Positions 13,428 through 59,597 of a stretch of DNA of 64,000 bases are shown here, one piece after another. Position numbers and translations under genes: made by a program. The DNA comes from an uncultured Bacteroidales bacterium. GTDB taxonomy: Bacteria; Bacteroidota; Bacteroidia; Bacteroidales; TTA-H9. Position 1 is the first letter of the stretch. Each line of letters opens with the position of its first letter. The notes under the pieces are model-generated. The model was not told the origin of the DNA. It made no database searches and saw nothing but the letters and a program-made list of their open reading frames with translations. The stretch spans positions 10,025 to 74,024 of the forward strand of contig CAYUII010000010.1 in NCBI GenBank assembly GCA_964444785.1, in the 5' to 3' direction.

Positions 13428-14393
13428 ATGAAGAGATCAATTGGATTTTTATGGATTGGACTTACCATCCTGAGTCTAACAGGATGCGTTTCACAAAAGA
13501 AGTTTACTGATCTGGAAGGGCGATATAGAGAGTGTACCGACGAGGTAGCCTCATTGAGACAACAACGTCAGGATCTTGAAAACGAAAAGAAAGAACTTAG
13601 CTCTACCAATACCCGCCTTAGGGAAGAGAGCAAGAAGCTTGGAACCGATACTCTTTCTCTTGGTCAGGCTCTTCGTGATGCGAAGTATGATATGGCTAAA
13701 CTGAATAAGAGTCATGATGAGTTATTGGAGGCGATGACCAAGATGCAGAGCGGATCACAAACTGAGTTACAACGTCTCTTGGGTGAATTACAAGTGGCTC
13801 AAGAGAAACTATCTCACAAACAAGACTCGCTACGCTCTTTAGAAAGAGAACTAGCCGGCCGTCAAAAAAGACTCGCTGAATTGGAACGTATGCTTGCCAA
13901 ACAAGACTCTCTCACGATTGCTCTGAGAAAGAAAGTGGCTGATGCCCTCTTAAGTTTTCAAGGGAAAGGACTTACTGTGACCATGAAAAATGGGAAAGTA
14001 TATGTCTCACTCGAAGAGAGTTTACTCTTTAAATCAGGCTCTTATGATGTAGGTACTCGTGGAGAAAGTGCTCTTGAACAGTTGGCTTCCGTCTTAGCTT
14101 CTAATCCTGATATCTCTGTCATGATTGAAGGTCATACAGATAATGTACCCTATAGAGGTTCGGGGCAACTTAAAGACAACTGGGATTTAAGTGTTATGCG
14201 TGCAACCCAAGTGGTTAAAATACTCATGAAAAATAAACTAATTGACCCCTCACGCTTAACTGCTGCCGGACGATCAGAATACCTCCCGCTAACAACCAAT
14301 GCAACTCCTGAAGGCAAAGCATCAAATCGTAGAACCGAGATCATTCTTACCCCAAAACTGGATGAACTCTACAAACTTATTGAAGGAAAATAA
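13428..14393 (+). CDS. OmpA-family lipoprotein with an N-terminal coiled coil
   Basis: Lipobox LSLTGC and a ~150-aa heptad-rich Q/E/L region. The C-terminal OmpA/MotB peptidoglycan-binding motifs are GHTDNVPY, NWDLSVMRA, and NRRTEIIL. Confidence 0.85.
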   Translation: MKRSIGFLWIGLTILSLTGCVSQKKFTDLEGRYRECTDEVASLRQQRQDLENEKKELSSTNTRLREESKKLGTDTLSLGQALRDAKYDMAKLNKSHDELLEAMTKMQSGSQTELQRLLGELQVAQEKLSHKQDSLRSLERELAGRQKRLAELERMLAKQDSLTIALRKKVADALLSFQGKGLTVTMKNGKVYVSLEESLLFKSGSYDVGTRGESALEQLASVLASNPDISVMIEGHTDNVPYRGSGQLKDNWDLSVMRATQVVKILMKNKLIDPSRLTAAGRSEYLPLTTNATPEGKASNRRTEIILTPKLDELYKLIEGK

Positions 14394-14419
14394 CTCCTCT
14401 TTATAGCCCCAAACTCTTG

Positions 14420-14543
14420 ACCTGTTCGCTCCCTCTCCGCTCCCTCTCCATATAAAGCTCTATCTTATCCGAAAAAAAAAGTAGAAGAAAATAGTTTTAA
14501 ACGAAAAAAGAGCGAAGAGCGAGCGCAGAGCGAGCGAACAGGT
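14420..14543. repeat. Short (internally deleted?) member of the CT/GA-armed inverted-repeat element family
   Basis: The left arm acctgttcg|ctccctctccg|ctccctctccatat (14420-14453) faces the right arm gagcgaagagcgagcgcagagcgagcgaacaggt (14510-14543). The outer 12 bp are perfect, followed by regularly spaced C-C mismatches. The spacer is A-rich and 56 nt long. Confidence 0.7.
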
Positions 14544-14618
14544 AATAGGTAACGCCTAAAGATCAACCCCGTTTAATAATCACCCTTTAGATCAACCAAC
14601 CTTATACAATAGGGTTTA

Positions 14619-15284
14619 CTACCCCTCTATAGCCTGGTTTAGAAAATGAATAAACGGCACCATCGCTGTAAATGGCTCTATTGCTAAAGCAACAAGATCG
14701 GCGGATGCAATCTCTGCATCAGACAAAGATAGACCTGTAACAAAATGCTTCTTCTTCAAAACCTCTATCCCTTCGAAATCTGGAGAATATCCCTTTGGTG
14801 GTCTACTCAATGAATCCCCCATATCCATTAACTCCGGGTAGAACTTCATGAACTTTTTGTTATTGACTATCTTCTCAAAATCACCCCAGTTATAAAAGAT
14901 CTCTTGACGCAAGGCCTTAAGATTCTCCGGAGATGGACCATATACACCTCCTCCAATAAATGATTTACCAGGCTCAAGATGTAGATAATAACCCCCAAAA
15001 GGGCTCTTTTTCCCTCCTCGAGTAAAGAAAAGTCCGGCATGTGATTTATAGGGATCCTTATTATTGCTAAACCTTATATCCCGATTTATCCTAAAGATAC
15101 AATCTGAAGGAGTTAATGCCCCCAATAAGGGATCAACTTTTTGTAACTCCTTAATAAGACTTGAGACCAACTCAACCTGTAACTTCTTTATCTTTTCATA
15201 CCACTCCTTGTTAGCTTGAAACCATTCCCGGTAATTATTCTCAGCCAAAGCCCTATAAAAGGCTAATATTTCTTCACCAATCAT
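14619..15284 (-). CDS. DUF2461 (TIGR02453) family protein
   Basis: ORF 14619..15476. The conserved family start is MIGEEILAFYRALAENNYREWFQANK (cat at 15282-15284), and it contains the internal RINRDIRFS motif typical of TIGR02453. Confidence 0.75.
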   Translation of the reverse strand: MIGEEILAFYRALAENNYREWFQANKEWYEKIKKLQVELVSSLIKELQKVDPLLGALTPSDCIFRINRDIRFSNNKDPYKSHAGLFFTRGGKKSPFGGYYLHLEPGKSFIGGGVYGPSPENLKALRQEIFYNWGDFEKIVNNKKFMKFYPELMDMGDSLSRPPKGYSPDFEGIEVLKKKHFVTGLSLSDAEIASADLVALAIEPFTAMVPFIHFLNQAIEG

Positions 15285-31267: not shown

Positions 31268-31432
31268 TTAGTTTCCTTTACGCTCGAGATTCTCGTCGGA
31301 GACAGTCAGTTTCCAGCGACCCTTTGCCCTTCTGGATGCAAGCACGCGGCGACCATTAGCAGACGACATTCTCTTACGGAAACCGTGCTTGTTTATTCTT
31401 TTTCTCCTTGATGGCTGAAATGTCCTCTTCAT
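31268..31432 (-). CDS. rpmH: 50S ribosomal protein L34
   Basis: Hand translation gives [54 protein letters not shown] (54 aa), which carries the canonical L34 signature. It is below the ORF-track length cutoff. The listed + strand ORF 31214..31411 is its antisense shadow. Confidence 0.93.
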
Positions 31433-31454
31433 AGCTCGTATTTTTTTGGGAGTG

Positions 31455-31486
31455 CAAAAGTAGGATTTTATTTCCTACTTTACAAA
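31455..31486 (-). promoter_or_regulatory. Candidate Bacteroidota-type promoter for rpmH (-33 TTTG, -7 TAnnTTTG)
   Basis: The minus strand reads TTTG (31483-31486), a 20-nt spacer, then TACTTTTG (31455-31462), ending 22 nt upstream of the ATG. An 8-bp hairpin (31457-31464 with 31474-31481) overlaps the -7 box. Confidence 0.45.
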
Positions 31487-31620
31487 CTGTTCATCAATTA
31501 TTTTTAGTAACCGGTGCAAATTTAACTCTTTTATCGGAATTTTAAACTATTAACTGGGATAATCTGGATTGCCTGATTCCTCGAATTCAAATACCTTTCT
31601 GATTGAGTATACATTATCAA

Positions 31621-31890
31621 CATCTCTTCGCTTCTTCTTCGCTTCTTCTTCGCTCCTTCTCCATATAACTATACTAAAGCCTATGTTAAAACAGGAAACT
31701 CACTTCTTTACTTAGCATCTCATTTGTATTTCTTTAATAGATCGACTCCCTTCGTTAACCCAGGAGAAACGGATCCTTCTATGGTCATCAGCCAGTACAA
31801 ATCCATAAGAGATCTCAAGCCTCTACCTATTAATCCATTTTAACAAGAGGTAGATATGGAGAAGAAGCGAAGGGGGACGGGAGAGATAGA
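31621..31890. repeat. Full-length member of the CT/GA-armed inverted-repeat element family (~270 bp)
   Basis: Left arm: catctcttcg|cttcttcttcg|cttcttcttcg|ctccttctccatat. Right arm: atatggagaagaagcgaagggggacgggagagataga. The core 31651-31666 pairs with 31854-31869 at 15 of 16 positions. The interior is 187 nt and ORF-free. Confidence 0.7.
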
Positions 31891-31944
31891 TTTGAAAGGT
31901 CATCTTTCTTAGTTCACAAAAAAAGAGTGATAAATTTGTCTGGG

Positions 31945-31986
31945 CACTAAAAAGAGGGGCTATCACGGCAAAAACCGGATAGCCCC
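31945..31986 (-). terminator. Rho-independent terminator of pepD
   Basis: ggggctatc (31956-31964) pairs with gatagcccc (31978-31986). On the minus strand tcttttt follows. It lies 32 nt past the stop. Confidence 0.75.
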
Positions 31987-32017: not shown

Positions 32018-33478
32018 CTATTTAGAAGGAACGTCAGCCAGAGTTGCTATCAAGAAGTTAAAGAATTTTGCAACGCTGGGAACGTTAACTCTTTCATCGG
32101 GTGAGTGAGGAGAGCGAATAGTGGGGCCGAAGGAGATCATATCCCATTTTGGATAGACACCGCCTAGTAAACCACACTCAAGACCGGCATGGATAGCCTT
32201 TATTTCAGGAATCTTTCCGTAGAGTTTCTCATAGGTAGCCTGCATCGTTTTCAGGATGGGTGACTCCATATTGGGTTTCCATCCGGGGTAACCTCCTTCA
32301 AATAAGATATCAGCGCCAGCCAATTCAAATACGGAGGAGATCATAGCCGCTAAATCATCCTTTGCACTATCCACCGAGCTGCGCATCAAGCATGATATTT
32401 TAATCGTTCCATTAAGACTTTTAACGCTGGCAAGGTTATTAGAGGTCTCTACTAATCCTGGCATTGAGTCACTCATGCGAATAACCCCGTTAGGGCAAGC
32501 ATAGATCGCATTGGTTAATGACCATTGAGTACCTTGATCCATCACTGAATCGATCTCTTCAGAAGCAACAACTTTGAAGCTGAGGTTTGGTTCGGTAGCA
32601 GAAAGCTCACTTTTAAAGATCTGCTCCATTTCATTCGCATAATCCAGAAGACTCTGCTTCATTTCATTTGGAACCGCAACAACCGCAACAGCCTCTCTAG
32701 GTATCGCATTACGTAAAGATCCACCCACAACAGAAGCAAGGCGTAACTGGAATTTCTCAGTAGCAGCTTTAAGGAATCGGAAGAGAAGTTTATTAGCATT
32801 GCCTCTTCCAAGAACGATGTCCATTCCTGAGTGGCCTCCCTTTAACCCAGAGACCTTAAGGGTATAGGTAGAATGCTCGGCAGGCATTGCCTCTTCAGTG
32901 TACCTAAAAGTGGCAGTCGCATCAAGGCCACCGGCGCATCCGACATACAACTCACCCTCATCCTCTGAATCAAGATTAAGCAGGATATCGCCCTTTAATA
33001 ACCCGGGTTTTAAACCAAAAGCACCGGTCATTCCTGTCTCTTCATCAGCAGTAAAGAGGGCTTCTATAGGACCATGCTTAATGGTTTTACTTGCCAAAAC
33101 AGCCATAGCTGCAGCCACTCCAATACCATTGTCGGCACCCAGCGTTGTACCATTCGCCTTCATCCATTCTCCATCGGGACAAGTCTCGATAGGATCTTTT
33201 GTAAAGTCATGGGCTTTATCGCTATTAGCTTGAGGCACCATATCCAGATGACCTTGCAAAACCACCCCTTGACGATTCTCCATTCCAGGGGTAGCCGGCT
33301 TACGGATAATAACATTGCCAACCTCATCCATGATGGTCTCTAGATTGAGTTGTTTTCCAAAACTCATCATGAATTCACGGATAGCTTCCTCATGCTTTGA
33401 AGGACGAGGAATAAGGGTGAGGCTACGAAAGTGTTCCCACACCTCTTTTGGTTCAAGATTTAAAAGATTCTCATTCAT
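32018..33478 (-). CDS. pepD: Aminoacyl-histidine dipeptidase (M20C, Xaa-His dipeptidase)
   Basis: N-terminus LEPKEVWEHFRSLTLIPRPSKHE, plus QGHLDMV and GADNGIG motifs. 486 aa. Confidence 0.92.
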   Translation of the reverse strand: MNENLLNLEPKEVWEHFRSLTLIPRPSKHEEAIREFMMSFGKQLNLETIMDEVGNVIIRKPATPGMENRQGVVLQGHLDMVPQANSDKAHDFTKDPIETCPDGEWMKANGTTLGADNGIGVAAAMAVLASKTIKHGPIEALFTADEETGMTGAFGLKPGLLKGDILLNLDSEDEGELYVGCAGGLDATATFRYTEEAMPAEHSTYTLKVSGLKGGHSGMDIVLGRGNANKLLFRFLKAATEKFQLRLASVVGGSLRNAIPREAVAVVAVPNEMKQSLLDYANEMEQIFKSELSATEPNLSFKVVASEEIDSVMDQGTQWSLTNAIYACPNGVIRMSDSMPGLVETSNNLASVKSLNGTIKISCLMRSSVDSAKDDLAAMISSVFELAGADILFEGGYPGWKPNMESPILKTMQATYEKLYGKIPEIKAIHAGLECGLLGGVYPKWDMISFGPTIRSPHSPDERVNVPSVAKFFNFLIATLADVPSK

Positions 33479-50670: not shown

Positions 50671-51087
50671 ATGTCAGAATTAAAGACTCAACCCTCCGGA
50701 GATTCTGTTTCTGAGTTTATCTCTAATCTTCTTGATGAGCAACGTCGTTTGGACTGTGAAAAGCTCAATTTGATCTTCTCTGAAGTGACCAATCAGAATC
50801 CGGTTATATGGGGTGGATCAATTATAGGTTATGGTCACTATCATTACAAGTACGAAAGTGGAAGACAAGGCGACTGGTTTACTGTTGGGTTTTCTCCCCG
50901 CAAACAGAACATTACTTTATACTTCATGATTGGGGTTGAAAAGTTAGCCCCTTTACTTAAATCTTTAGGGAAACATAAAACGGGAACCTCTTGTGTTTAT
51001 ATCAACAAACTTTCTGATATCAAAGAGGATGTTCTGAGGAATCTTATAAAACAAACTATAGAAAGCGTAAATAGTATTAACGGATGA
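50671..51087 (+). CDS. DUF1801 (YdhG-like) domain protein
   Basis: 138 aa. The family-level resemblance rests on ..WGGSIIGYGHYHYKYESGRQGDWF.VGFSPRKQNITLYF. Confidence 0.6.
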   Translation: MSELKTQPSGDSVSEFISNLLDEQRRLDCEKLNLIFSEVTNQNPVIWGGSIIGYGHYHYKYESGRQGDWFTVGFSPRKQNITLYFMIGVEKLAPLLKSLGKHKTGTSCVYINKLSDIKEDVLRNLIKQTIESVNSING

Positions 51088-51130: not shown

Positions 51131-51400
51131 TCTCCATTACCTCTTCGCCTCCCCTTCGCTCTCTCTCCATACTTAGATGGGAAAATACGGAGAGGGCTAA
51201 AATGGAATGCGCTTTCGGAATAAATCAGTATTATTTGGATAATACTCCAGATAGGGAGTGCTATGGATTCAGGTCAAATCCACAGATCTATTAAGCCAGT
51301 AGTAGCTGATTACATCTCCCTTAAAATAGACCTGGAAATCTTGCCAAATGAATAGAGAATGTATGGAGAGAGAGCGAAGAAGATACGAAGGGGAAGATAA
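51131..51400. repeat. Full-length member of the CT/GA-armed inverted-repeat element family (~270 bp)
   Basis: cttcgctctctctccatac (51154-51172) pairs with gtatggagagagagcgaag (51361-51379), a perfect 19-bp stem. The outer arms are ctcttcg|cctccccttcg and cgaagaagata|cgaaggggaag. The interior is 188 nt. Confidence 0.7.
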
Positions 51401-51593: not shown

Positions 51594-53225
51594 ATGAACA
51601 ACGCTCATTATCATTTTGAGATGCCCCAGAATGAGAGGGTATTATCATACGCTCCAGGAACAGAGGAGCGTCGGCTATTAAAAGAGGAGCTGAATCGCCA
51701 GACCAACCAGAAGATTGAAATTCCTCTGATTATTGGGGGAAAAGAAGTTCGTACAGGGAAGACCGTTGAGGTTGTGATGCCACATAACCACAAGCATGTA
51801 TTAGCGGTTGCTCATATTGCCGGAGAAGAAGAGATCAAGATGGCCATTGAAGCTGCAATGGAAGCAAAAAAAGCATGGTCAATGCGTTCATGGCACGATC
51901 GGTCAGCTATTATGTTAAGAGCGGCCGACTTACTTCGTACCAAATATCGCTATGTCATCAATGCGGCAACCATGCTGGGACAAAGTAAGACCCCTCATCA
52001 AGCTGAGATTGATTCAGCATGTGAGACCATCGACTTTTTAACATTTAACAGCTACTTCGCTTCAAAGATCTATTCAGATCAACCCATCAGTGAGCCTACT
52101 CATCTGAACATGCTAGAGTATCGTCCATTGGAAGGATTCGTCTTTGCCGTATCTCCATTTAACTTTACATCCATCGCAGCCAACCTGAACGCAAGTCCGG
52201 TTTTAATGGGTAATGTCACCGTATGGAAACCTGCTACTACCGCCTTACTCTCCAACTACTATTTGATGAAAGTTTTTGAAGAGGCTGGTTTACCTGCAGG
52301 AGTCATCAACTTTGTACCCTCACAAGGCAGTACCATCGGACGTATTGTTTTAGGTCATAAAGATATGGCCGGTATTCACTTTACCGGATCGACAGGTACC
52401 TTCAATCATCTCTGGCGTACAGCCGGCGAGAACCTGACCCTCTATCGTGGTTATCCGAAGCTTGTTGGGGAAACGGGTGGAAAAGACTTTGTTTTCGTGC
52501 ACAAATCAGCTCAAGTTGATCAAGTAGCAGTAGCTTTAGTTAGAGGTGCTTTTGAATTTCAGGGTCAGAAGTGCTCGGCTGCTTCAAGAGCCTACATTCC
52601 TGAGTCAATGTGGCCCGGTGTTGAAGCTCGAATGAAAGAGATGTTAGGCACTATTAAACAGGGGGATGTTACTGATTTCACCAACTTCGTTAATGCAGTA
52701 ATTGATAATGCTTCATTCGATAATATCGTCAAATATATCGAAGCAGCAAAAAACACTCCTGATGCTGAGATTGCAATTGGTGGCAAGTACGACAAGAGTG
52801 TGGGTTACTTCATTGAACCAACCGTTATTAAAGCCAATAACCCTCACTTCATCTCCATTGAAGAAGAGATCTTTGGCCCCGTTCTTACCGTTTATGTTTA
52901 TCCTGATGAAAAGTATGAAGAAACCTTACATCTCTGCGATGAAACATCTCCATACGCTCTTACCGGTGCCATTTTTGCAACATGTCGTGCTGCTATTGAC
53001 AAAGCTCATGAAATACTCAGATATGCTGCCGGAAACTTCTACATCAATGATAAACCGACTGGAGCAGTAGTCGGACAACAACCTTTTGGTGGAGCTCGTG
53101 GCTCAGGAACCAACGATAAAGCAGGTTCTTTACTTAACCTGATTCGATGGACCAGTCCCAGAACTGTCAAGGAGACTTATAATCCTCCCACAGACTACAG
53201 ATATCCATTCTTAAAAGCTGAGTAG
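51594..53225 (+). CDS. pruA: L-glutamate gamma-semialdehyde (1-pyrroline-5-carboxylate) dehydrogenase
   Basis: 543-aa ALDH-superfamily protein with catalytic GETGGKD and EFQGQKCSA (Cys) motifs and an N-terminal extension typical of stand-alone P5CDH. Confidence 0.88.
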   Translation: MNNAHYHFEMPQNERVLSYAPGTEERRLLKEELNRQTNQKIEIPLIIGGKEVRTGKTVEVVMPHNHKHVLAVAHIAGEEEIKMAIEAAMEAKKAWSMRSWHDRSAIMLRAADLLRTKYRYVINAATMLGQSKTPHQAEIDSACETIDFLTFNSYFASKIYSDQPISEPTHLNMLEYRPLEGFVFAVSPFNFTSIAANLNASPVLMGNVTVWKPATTALLSNYYLMKVFEEAGLPAGVINFVPSQGSTIGRIVLGHKDMAGIHFTGSTGTFNHLWRTAGENLTLYRGYPKLVGETGGKDFVFVHKSAQVDQVAVALVRGAFEFQGQKCSAASRAYIPESMWPGVEARMKEMLGTIKQGDVTDFTNFVNAVIDNASFDNIVKYIEAAKNTPDAEIAIGGKYDKSVGYFIEPTVIKANNPHFISIEEEIFGPVLTVYVYPDEKYEETLHLCDETSPYALTGAIFATCRAAIDKAHEILRYAAGNFYINDKPTGAVVGQQPFGGARGSGTNDKAGSLLNLIRWTSPRTVKETYNPPTDYRYPFLKAE

Positions 53226-53326: not shown

Positions 53327-54880
53327 ATGAATTATCCATACAGCGAGAGACTGCAACAGAGTCTTAAGAATTTAGGAATTGAACCCTCTCATATGGGATT
53401 AAGCACTGGAAAAAAATGGCATAAAACAGCCGGGAAAAAAGTAGAGATGACTTCACCCGCCGATGGTAGCTTAATCACCACAATTACCCAAGCTACCAAA
53501 GATGATTATAATCTGATGATGGAAACGGCTCAACAGGCGTTCCTTCAATGGAGAATGGTTCCCGCTCCAAAACGTGGAGAGATCGTCAGACAAATTGGGG
53601 AGGAGTTACGCCTGCACAAAGAAGACCTTGGATACCTAGTCTCCTGGGAGATGGGCAAAATACTCCAGGAAGGCATGGGTGAGGTACAAGAAATGATTGA
53701 TATTGCCGACTTTGCCGTTGGTCAGTCTAGACAACTTTATGGATTAACCATGCACAGTGAACGCTCCAGACACCGGATGTATGAACAGTATCATCCATTG
53801 GGAATAGTTGGAGTTGTAAGTGCCTTCAATTTCCCAGTGGCGGTATGGGCATGGAATGCTATGTTAGCACTAATCGCAGGGGATGTCGTCGTCTGGAAGC
53901 CGTCTGGAAAGGTCATGACTTGTGCTATTGCTGTACATAATGTTATGCACAAGGTTCTTTTGCGTAATAATTTACCCGATGGTCTATTAAATCTGATTTT
54001 AGCCGGATCATCAGAACTGGGTGATGATTTTTTCGCTGATAAAAGAATGCCTCTTATCAGTTTCACCGGATCAACCCGAGTTGGGAAAAAAGTGGCTCGA
54101 CTCGTCGGCGAACGACTCGGACGCTCTCTTCTCGAACTTGGAGGAAACAATGCCATCATCATCACTCCGTCTGCCGACCTTAAAATGGCTATCAGAGCAA
54201 CTGTCTTTGGAGCCGCCGGTACTGCAGGACAACGTTGTACTACCACAAGAAGACTTATTATTCACGAAAGCATATACGATACCTTCAAAGAAAGTCTTAC
54301 TAAAGCCTACAAACAATTACAGATTGGTCACCCATTAGACGACTCTACTCATATTGGCCCTCTGGTCTCTAAATCTGCGGTCACCGATTTTCAACATGCG
54401 GTCAATGAAGCTATAAAATCTGGTGGAAATCTCGTCTTTGGCGGCCAGGTACTTTCAGGCGAAAAATATGAAACCGGATGCTATGTTACCCCTACCATCA
54501 TTGAAGCTCGTAACGATTATCCCATCGTTCAGGAAGAGACTTTTGCCCCTATTGTTTATCTGATTAAATACTCAAATCTTAATGAGGCCATAGCCATTCA
54601 TAATGATGTACCCCAAGGCTTATCAAGCGCTATCATGACCAACGACCTTCGCGAATCAGAAGCCTTCCTCTCACATGAAGGTTCTGACTGTGGTATAGCA
54701 AATGTCAATATCGGAACCTCTGGCGCTGAAATCGGTGGCGCATTTGGAGGAGAAAAGGAAACAGGCGGAGGAAGAGAATCTGGCTCTGACTCATGGAAGA
54801 TCTATATGCGTCGCCAAACCAACACGATCAATTACTCTACTGATCTACCCCTTGCTCAAGGCATTCAATTTGATTTTTAG
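53327..54880 (+). CDS. ALDH7-type aldehyde dehydrogenase (alpha-aminoadipic semialdehyde / piperideine-6-carboxylate dehydrogenase-like)
   Basis: The C-terminal block GSDCGIANVNIGTSGAEIGGAFGGEKETGGGRESGSDSWKIYMRRQTNTINYS..LPLAQGIQF is close to the antiquitin (ALDH7A1) signature. The catalytic motifs are ELGGNN and GTAGQRCT. Confidence 0.9.
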   Translation: MNYPYSERLQQSLKNLGIEPSHMGLSTGKKWHKTAGKKVEMTSPADGSLITTITQATKDDYNLMMETAQQAFLQWRMVPAPKRGEIVRQIGEELRLHKEDLGYLVSWEMGKILQEGMGEVQEMIDIADFAVGQSRQLYGLTMHSERSRHRMYEQYHPLGIVGVVSAFNFPVAVWAWNAMLALIAGDVVVWKPSGKVMTCAIAVHNVMHKVLLRNNLPDGLLNLILAGSSELGDDFFADKRMPLISFTGSTRVGKKVARLVGERLGRSLLELGGNNAIIITPSADLKMAIRATVFGAAGTAGQRCTTTRRLIIHESIYDTFKESLTKAYKQLQIGHPLDDSTHIGPLVSKSAVTDFQHAVNEAIKSGGNLVFGGQVLSGEKYETGCYVTPTIIEARNDYPIVQEETFAPIVYLIKYSNLNEAIAIHNDVPQGLSSAIMTNDLRESEAFLSHEGSDCGIANVNIGTSGAEIGGAFGGEKETGGGRESGSDSWKIYMRRQTNTINYSTDLPLAQGIQFDF

Positions 54881-57232: not shown

Positions 57233-57267
57233 GGGGGCCGCTCGAGAGAACGGTCCCTTTCTTTTTT
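57233..57267 (+). terminator. Rho-independent terminator of the GH97 gene
   Basis: ggggccg (57234-57240) pairs with cggtccc (57251-57257), 7 bp including one G.U. It is followed by tttcttttttc. Confidence 0.65.
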
Positions 57268-57433
57268 CCCTCCTCTATCTACACAAAGAATCATCACCAT
57301 ATATAAATCAAAAAACTTTAATAATGAAACACAAGAAATAGAATACAATGCGATAGGAAATCAAATAAAATCTTACTTTTAGCAAATTAAAACTACCCAA
57401 TTCAACACATTCAACCAATAAAATATCCTAACT

Positions 57434-59545: not shown

Positions 59546-59570
59546 AATTGGGTTGAATAAAAGAAGGAAA

Positions 59571-59597
59571 AAGAAAAAGGGTGGCCAATGGCCGCCC
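59571..59597 (-). terminator. Terminator hairpin between the convergent M48 and pheS genes; strong T-run on the pheS strand
   Basis: gggtggcc (59579-59586) pairs with ggccgccc (59590-59597). On the minus strand tttttctttttcc follows. Confidence 0.62.

Follow-up and report, generated by a model that had tools for sequence, protein, structure and literature searches.

Terminal inverted repeats of helically phased 11-bp units define an intergenic repeat family in an uncultured Bacteroidales lineage

REPINs carry conserved inverted arms around spacers of which no two are alike, adopt discrete preferred spacings and persist by vertical descent (PMC3337134). The families of MITEs (miniature inverted-repeat transposable elements) in P. 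gingivalis share terminal inverted repeats (TIRs) that enclose unrelated interiors and reach 10–20 copies per genome, and BrickBuilt, from the same species, is a MITE combined with short tandem repeats (PMC4596501). Here, we describe E2, an intergenic element at positions 31621–31890 of a 64-kb stretch of DNA from an uncultured Bacteroidales bacterium (referred to as the window; 40.7% GC). It belongs to a non-coding repeat family that had not been described before and that is dispersed, multi-copy and restricted to one lineage. The reading that we favour, and hold to be somewhat better than an even bet, is that the E2 family consists of MITE- or REPIN-like non-autonomous DNA elements with helically phased, putatively protein-binding ends, which are old and have become fixed in the species. 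A literature search for described elements with such an architecture found none.

E2 is bounded by two long arms that are built from short repeated units. The left TIR (31621–31666, + strand), located by Tandem Repeats Finder and by an arm hidden Markov model (HMM), presents its pyrimidine strand and reads as the 11-nt units ATCTCTTCG / CTTCTTCTTCG / CTTCTTCTTCG / CTCCTTCTCCATAT, with the middle unit doubled relative to the family consensus. Tandem Repeats Finder reports the 11-nt unit TCTTCGCTTCT repeated 3.3 times at 31625–31660 with 96% matches, a separate repeat search recovered three copies at 11-nt spacing, and matches to the arm HMM on this side cover 31616–31649 and 31636–31666. The right TIR (31854–31890) presents the purine strand, ATATGGAGAAGAAGCGAAGGGGGACGGGAGAGATAGA, on the + strand, and is matched by the arm HMM on the minus strand at 31892–31854. 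The arm core, formed by 31648–31666 and 31854–31872, spans 19 nt at 95% complementarity and encloses 187 nt; when the arms are extended to 28 nt, complementarity is 79%. Both arms are present as the initial annotation had quoted them, down to the outermost ATCTCT/AGAGAT, and the 11-nt units, the arm pairing and the 187-nt interval that it described were all recovered. No open reading frame (ORF) overlapping E2 is longer than 48 amino acids and none is common to several copies, which bears out its statement that the arms enclose no conserved ORF.

The arms of the family were located with an nhmmer profile, and 24 of them were aligned outward from the junction with the interior. The resulting consensus consists of three 11-nt units, TACCTCTCCCT / ATCYYCTTCGC / TCCYTCTCCAT-AT, of which the junction-side unit is also given as TCCYTCTCCATAT; in short form the pattern is TACCTCTCC...CCATAT. 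The TIRs are 35–45 bp long and contain at least three pyrimidine units of 11 bp each. The outermost TA is not constant, being replaced by CA or AA in four ends. The middle unit is duplicated in some copies, as in the left arm of E2, and its number differs between alleles of a single locus, with two units in one contig (L011 6885–6923) and three in two others (L013 68–117 and L018 2747–2796); the arms thus amount to a small tandem repeat of variable unit number. The two arms of one element are 77% alike, compared with 72 ± 8% for arms of different elements, and since an element's own arms are barely closer to each other than to foreign arms, each arm fits a common recognition consensus. Because the arm is all-pyrimidine on one strand except for a periodic G, it cannot pair with itself.

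Two siblings of E2 lie in the window, neither assigned a strand. E3 (51131–51400) is full-length, with arms at approximately 51135–51172 and 51361–51398, an interior of 190 nt and an inverted core that is perfect over 19 nt. E1 (14420–14546) is a short, internally deleted copy, whose arms (14419–14453 and approximately 14510–14546) form a stem of ~33 bp around a loop of ~56 nt. BLAST similarity among the three window copies is confined to the arms. The junction motif TCGCTCYYTCTCCATA occurs eight times at up to three mismatches, against 1.6 ± 1.1 in shuffled sequence, where no shuffle reached eight, and the strongest pyrimidine/purine tracts of the window are the arms themselves (seven tracts found, none in shuffles). 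Other purine/pyrimidine-rich tracts of ~30 nt, at 54746–54778, 57253–57282 and 59554–59584, gave no match to the arm HMM and are apparently unrelated.

Beyond the window, the paired-arm pattern matched JGI metagenome contigs 22 times, and these matches reduce to 12 distinct full-length loci once alleles of the same locus are merged; two of the 12 are the window's own E2 and E3 (~99% identity). The sibling copies named in the initial annotation are thus real, and its count of three holds for the window but understates the family. The paired-arm scan returned no match in 185,579 species-representative genomes and none in viral contigs, and a single-arm scan of the species-representative genomes gave 39 matches, 37 of which are chance pyrimidine tracts in unrelated phyla. 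The only species-representative genome with true arms is a Bacteroidota metagenome-assembled genome (MAG) labelled Sphingobacteriia bacterium MS_R2_22, which holds a short paired copy and a lone arm. These two copies (L075 1513–1683 and L049 7615–7720) have ~100 nt in common, including 19 nt outside the arm (TTTCGCATGTCTTTT). No right arm was present within the 330 nt examined at L049, and its lone arm may be the end of a longer element. An autonomous partner in MS_R2_22 was considered and rejected: L049 and L075 are on one contig in non-overlapping stretches, with no transposase-like ORF.

The interiors share length rather than sequence. Measured from the innermost arm unit, they are 189–191 nt long in eight copies, 179–180 nt in three and 201 nt in one, and all are AT-rich (30–38% GC). 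Pairs of interiors are essentially unrelated, with only 5 of 66 reaching z>3, and a global MAFFT alignment aligned the arms only and flipped some of the sequences. The interiors are also no more structured than shuffles, with a mean z of about −0.5 on each strand. Each element contains ~35–50 bp of degenerate subterminal DNA per end and a centre of ~90–120 bp that is different in every copy, and the interior total is quantised, taking discrete values although the centre sequence differs from copy to copy. In E2, the left subterminal zone (31667–31701, no strand, ~35 nt) carries a weak family consensus with A/T patches in 11-bp register. The variable centre (31702–31821, no strand) is AT-rich and unrelated to other copies, with unremarkable structure and neither a conserved ORF nor a Bacteroidota-type promoter motif, and the right subterminal zone (31822–31853, minus strand) carries the family motif TCTACCTCTTGTTAAAATGGATTAATAGGTAGA on the minus strand.

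The interiors show a sharp periodicity of 11.0 bp, both in AA/TT (z=5.5) and in A/T content (z=5.2), which is missing from seven control intergenic segments of the window, a small control set. The phase is locked to the junctions (R=0.74–0.81, p<0.001), and its mean of about −16 degrees corresponds, by our own calculation, to the phase that flipping a 190-bp interior would leave as it is; a single lattice therefore accommodates the A/T patches of both ends. The periodicity persists when 20 nt are trimmed from each side, is marginal at 35 nt and is gone at 50 nt. Stacking the 24 ends yields a degenerate subterminal consensus composed of TCTTCTCC, an A/T block, TGG, ATAAAT and then CGG/AAGAA, which is clearer at one end of each element. 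An anchored rhythm that is limited by trimming, together with this degenerate consensus, means that the element consists of a centre that is fixed in length but otherwise free, flanked on either side by a long phased end. The motif TCTACCTCTTGTTAAAATGGATTAATAGGTAGA in the right subterminal zone of E2 can form a hairpin with a 7-bp stem, TCTACCT/AGGTAGA (z = −1.87). A subterminal hairpin was rejected as a conserved structure, being found in about half of the copies with differing stems but lacking significance across the 24 ends, which have a mean z of −0.24 compared with −0.04 for central controls.

All copies, including those at the metagenome loci, are intergenic, as the initial annotation had stated for the window, and they occur in every gene arrangement at variable distances from genes. 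Copies lie between convergent genes (E1, L014, L021 and L030), between tandem genes (E2, E3, L028, L029 and L031) and between divergent genes (L018/L022 and L019). The history of the E2 site can be read from its relatives. The best pepD relatives outside the species are MAGs at 75–77% identity, two of which (L033 and L035; 76% pepD identity) retain the gidB-pepD-rpmH-DUF4834-YfhO synteny. The spacer between pepD and rpmH is 197 nt in both of these relatives, compared with 585 nt where E2 is present, and no arm-like sequence was found in 20 kb of either. The short spacer, the alignment of the DNA block upstream of rpmH and the lack of arms in these relatives together point to E2 as a lineage-specific insertion rather than conserved regulatory architecture.

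The site is empty in the two relatives, yet E1, E2 and E3 are present in every near-identical strain contig: E2 in every same-species contig that reaches the site, and E3 and E1 each in 10 of 10 strain contigs, with E3 in constant orientation across the 11 near-identical contigs compared. Six of ten independent metagenome contigs containing pepD terminate in the arms of E2, five in the left and one in the right (31623–31671 and 31871; contig ends L004–L010), which fits repeat-induced assembly breaks or heterogeneity in unit number. There is no evidence for recent movement among the copies examined. An apparent recent transposition between two loci, A (L018) and B (L022), whose interiors are 95–96% identical, was discarded because ~1.8 kb of left flank is common to both at 85.6% identity; they are therefore alleles of a single locus, carried by related genomes, in which the right side has been rearranged, and the claim of mobility was dropped.

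At this locus (L018 2470–2800 and L022 1690–2010) the element sits exactly at a synteny breakpoint, beyond which the right flanks are unrelated, with a ComM/Mg-chelatase-like gene in one allele and [2Fe-2S] ferredoxin and Fe-hydrogenase-like genes in the other. A further contig (L027) joins an L018-type left side to an L022-type right side, and L018-type alleles carry an extra 51 nt at the left boundary. To the left of the element, a poly-G tract at about 2180–2190 of L018 has eight G in L018 and nine in L022, L011, L013, L026 and L027; located just upstream of, or in an N-terminal extension of, a large minus-strand gene, it could be a phase-variable homopolymer.

Among documented systems, REPINs are the closest in behaviour to the E2 family. 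In both, two inverted conserved arms are far better conserved than the spacer, spacings are discrete, target-site duplications are lacking and copies are strictly extragenic, and the E2 family is likewise persistent, apparently vertical and not recently mobile. The two differ in structure: REP arms are imperfect palindromes of ~20–40 bp, whereas E2-family arms are pure pyrimidine/purine and do not self-pair, and REPINs measure ~90–130 bp overall with a hairpin-forming spacer, in contrast to a non-hairpin spacer of 190 bp. About a dozen E2-family copies were detected compared with hundreds of REPINs, and REPINs are mobilised by RAYT tyrosine transposases, whereas no RAYT gene lies among the 20 neighbouring genes. 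A published criterion for REP sequences is a conserved GTAG or CGTC tetranucleotide at the foot of the repeat (PMC3733652). This tag does not occur in the E2-family arm consensus.

The family also resembles bacterial MITEs (Correia/NEMIS, RUP and the P. gingivalis families) in being small, AT-rich and non-coding, with TIRs and 10–20 dispersed intergenic copies. It differs from them in having no target-site duplication, no parent insertion sequence (IS) found in the ~236 kb examined and no insertion polymorphism within the species at E1, E2 or E3, in carrying its tandem units in the arms rather than the interior, and in that the interiors, although fixed in length, are unique to each copy. We know of no IS terminus that the TIRs resemble. 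For TIRs held in common around unrelated interiors, the P. gingivalis families provide a precedent within Bacteroidota. Several short repeated units beyond a minimal TIR are also found at the ends of Tn7 and Mu, in eukaryotic foldback elements and in Ac/Ds and En/Spm. Foldback elements have long TIRs of tandem subrepeats around a variable middle, and the asymmetric subterminal motif at one end of E2-family elements may be comparable to transposon ends with repeated transposase-binding sites. Unlike those of the E2 family, the units of Tn7 and Mu are ~22 bp long and the others belong to eukaryotic systems, and all of these systems are known to make target-site duplications and to have autonomous partners. 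Bacteroides invertons place inverted repeats around ~170–230 bp of intergenic DNA, and one repeat family can serve many loci through a trans-acting recombinase. In the E2 family, by contrast, no inversion was seen, the interior contains no promoter, copies do not lie consistently upstream of operons, and the longer arms are made of 11-bp units.

In the mechanism that we propose for a non-autonomous mobile element, each end would act as an array of helically phased recognition units, with at least three conserved 11-bp units followed by ~35–50 bp of weak A/T rhythm. A putative trans-encoded protein of the transposase or recombinase type may bind cooperatively to the repeated units along one helical face, and the same putative enzyme would pair the two ends of the element, leading to the dispersal of copies into intergenic DNA. 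The central ~90–120 bp would then be filler that is free to mutate, its length being held so that both ends stay on one 11-bp lattice. Dispersal would have taken place in this Bacteroidales lineage after its split from the nearest sequenced relatives, and the present copies, which show no sign of current movement, are probably old and fixed. The element would act, or would once have acted, as DNA and not RNA. Its size of ~270 bp, lack of coding sequence, TIRs and dispersed copies are those of a MITE, and of the candidate explanations put forward in the initial annotation, a MITE-like mobile element is the best fit, given a dispersed intergenic TIR family and an empty site. The further copies and the empty site in relatives that it had proposed to look for were found, whereas the target-site duplications were not. 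Its protein-binding candidate is plausible as the way in which the ends work, in so far as 11-bp phasing extends into the subterminal DNA; the H-DNA variant was rejected, as direct reading finds a true mirror repeat in the left arm of E2 only and in no other arm.

Several observations weigh against a mobile origin. No direct repeat of at least 3 bp flanks any of the 14 copies inspected. The interiors show no shared sequence that would derive from a common master, as only ~35 nt of weak subterminal consensus is common to them, and interiors of copies at different sites never resemble one another. The 20 genes adjoining copies include no transposase or recombinase, all being ordinary metabolic, transport or regulatory genes, and no widely spaced arm pair that might represent a parent element was found in the ~236 kb examined. 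E1, E2 and E3 show no presence/absence polymorphism among near-identical strains. A repeat read purely by protein would not need the small excess in arm complementarity (85.8% against 81.3%). Finally, polymorphism counted across seven loci is lowest in the arms (6 segregating of 533 sites, 1.1%) and the largely coding flanks (19 of 1674, 1.1%), intermediate in the subterminal zones (10 of 476, 2.1%) and highest in the centres (21 of 696, 3.0%). The arms are thus less polymorphic than the centres (odds ratio 0.37, Fisher p=0.03), which suggests that they are constrained in place, unexpectedly for a dead selfish element.

This constraint would also fit an alternative in which the elements are architectural modules maintained by the host, whose arrays of 11-bp units bind a chromosomal protein (nucleoid-associated, loop-forming or cruciform-binding), whose A/T-phased subterminal DNA gives curvature, and whose fixed number of helical turns lets the protein bridge the arms; such modules may have spread as mobile DNA and now be retained by host selection. 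Arm polymorphism equal to that of the flanks and ~2.7 times below that of the centre, the fixation of every tested copy in the population, the 11-bp A/T rhythm that is phase-locked to both arms, the quantised interior length and the lack of both target-site duplications and recent copies all agree with it. Set against these are the lack of a candidate protein, the occurrence of copies in all gene arrangements at no consistent distance from their neighbours, and an empty site in the nearest relatives, which keep the surrounding regulatory DNA. The polymorphism contrast comes down to 6 versus 21 sites and could be explained by a higher mutation rate in AT-rich DNA, and the periodicity was compared with few controls (seven segments). 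We consider host maintenance unlikely. It is equally doubtful that the family represents a helically phased device. Its arrays, set on one 11-bp lattice and separated by ~18 turns of curved AT-rich DNA, would be host-maintained rather than decaying parasites, and the Bacteroidota protein that reads them would be undescribed, belonging to a new transposition or recombination system that makes no target-site duplication or acting as a nucleoid or loop-forming factor. On that reading, the arms would be conserved in place while the centres mutated to saturation at unchanged length. The family stands out for its non-palindromic arms of 11-bp units, a phase-locked rhythm in the subterminal DNA, a length that is quantised although the centres are unique, and arms that may be constrained in place.

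The arms could instead be read in RNA, where read-through transcription would produce an A-form helix of 35–45 bp that would stabilise mRNA, terminate transcription in both directions or be a target of RNase III, roles that have been proposed for REP and ERIC repeats. The unit length of 11 nt is the A-form helical repeat, E1 forms a compact hairpin between convergent genes, about half of the copies have a subterminal hairpin, albeit with differing stems, and whole elements fold far better than shuffles in five of six strand folds (z −3.8 to −5.8), the minus strand of E2 being the sixth (z = −1.1). Folding well on both strands is a consequence of the inverted repeat, however, and the better-folding strand is inconsistent, being + for E2 and minus for E3 and E1; nor is orientation relative to flanking genes fixed. 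Across 12 elements, 85.8% of arm cells are paired compared with 81.3 ± 0.9% in shuffles, with 13 double-change pairs against 8.6, but the shuffles ignore relatedness and subfamily structure could yield this excess; the compensatory change that the initial annotation had suggested looking for is seen as this small excess, with no strand bias of wobble pairs. With C/T in the left arm and A/G in the right, a transition mismatch can always form a wobble pair on one strand and never on the other. The bias towards T opposite G noted earlier is seen in E2 (5 versus 3) and is not a property of the family, in which mismatches split at random: the majority-strand sum over 14 elements is 39 of 57, and the hand-computed binomial expectation is ~39. 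Many transversions abolish pairing on both strands, the interior is not structured, and an 11-bp A/T rhythm in unpaired subterminal DNA is meaningful for the shape of DNA and not for RNA. No Rfam family matched the 64 kb at gathering score, in keeping with the earlier failure to recognise a known signature, and permissive searches gave only matches far below threshold to eukaryotic miRNA-precursor or snoRNA families. The structured non-coding RNA that had been offered as a candidate is thus not supported; we regard a transcribed hairpin as improbable, and conclude that the element is read as DNA rather than RNA.

Least probable is an inverton, in which an invertase acting in trans would use the arms as inverted-repeat sites and reverse the ~190-bp interior, as at the invertible promoters of Bacteroides. 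Those promoters, the subject of Krinos et al. 2001 and Jiang et al. 2019, reportedly fall in a similar size class, with conserved repeats and spacing and variable interiors, and in keeping with such a role E2 and E3 lie ~190–195 nt upstream of a gene start and contigs end at the arms. The orientation of the interior relative to the flanks is nevertheless the same in 41 of 41 contig comparisons at eight loci, at the level of assemblies, and most contig ends lie in the far arm, past the interior, where they fit variation in unit number rather than inversion. The Bacteroidota −7 promoter motif TAnnTTTG is not enriched in the interiors, occurring four times against 2.9 ± 1.7 expected, with one full promoter-like site in the 12 interiors; four copies lie between convergent genes, and no recombinase gene adjoins any copy among the 20 neighbours. 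An inverton is disfavoured, and we would give it very little weight.

E2 lies between a pepD-like gene for an M20 dipeptidase (32018–33478, minus strand) and rpmH (31268–31432, minus strand). Outside the element on the pepD side, a GC-rich hairpin downstream of pepD (31949–31986, minus strand), GGGGCTATC...GATAGCCCC followed by TCTTTTT, is terminator-like by inspection, although a simple terminator scan did not call it, its loop exceeding the limit of the scan. On the other side, and likewise outside the element, the block upstream of rpmH (31433–31490, minus strand; GTTTG ... TACTTTTGCACTCCCAAAAA-ATG), delimited by alignment with L033 and L035, resembles the Bacteroidota −33/−7 promoter, and E2 sits upstream of it. 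The block is near-identical in these relatives, for which pepD identity is only 76%, and, from its sequence, is predicted to serve ribosomal protein L34 as promoter and leader, of Bacteroidota type and strongly conserved. The placement between a pepD terminator and an rpmH promoter given in the initial annotation accordingly holds for the promoter block and, by inspection, for the hairpin with its T-run, but received no call from the terminator scan. Promoter and terminator are both intact, and no effect of E2 on either gene is evident.

E3 is flanked by a DUF1801 gene (50671–51087, + strand) and an aldehyde dehydrogenase gene (51594–53225, + strand), and E1 lies between convergent genes, OmpA-like (13428–14393, + strand) and DUF2461 (stop codon at 14619, minus strand). 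To the right of E1, a 64-nt segment (14549–14612) is present in the window and three strain contigs and missing from seven contigs whose OmpA-like protein is identical. A direct repeat of AATAGG flanks the segment, and inside it AGATCAACC occurs twice as a further direct repeat; it reflects either a slippage deletion or a small insertion that duplicated 6 bp. This length polymorphism was rejected as an empty E1 site, since the 64 nt belong to an indel that is next to E1 and distinct from it.

For the annotation of these genomes, E2 defines a repeat family of an uncultured Bacteroidales lineage that fragments metagenome assemblies and, at one locus, marks a synteny breakpoint. The family combines REPIN-like population behaviour with non-palindromic purine/pyrimidine arms of 11-bp units and a phase-locked A/T rhythm. 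Such a combination would imply that both the recognition protein and the geometry of end pairing differ from those of catalogued IS or RAYT systems. Should selection really act on the arms in place, the E2 family would exemplify domesticated repeat DNA in Bacteroidota, a group in which elements of this sort have been little studied.

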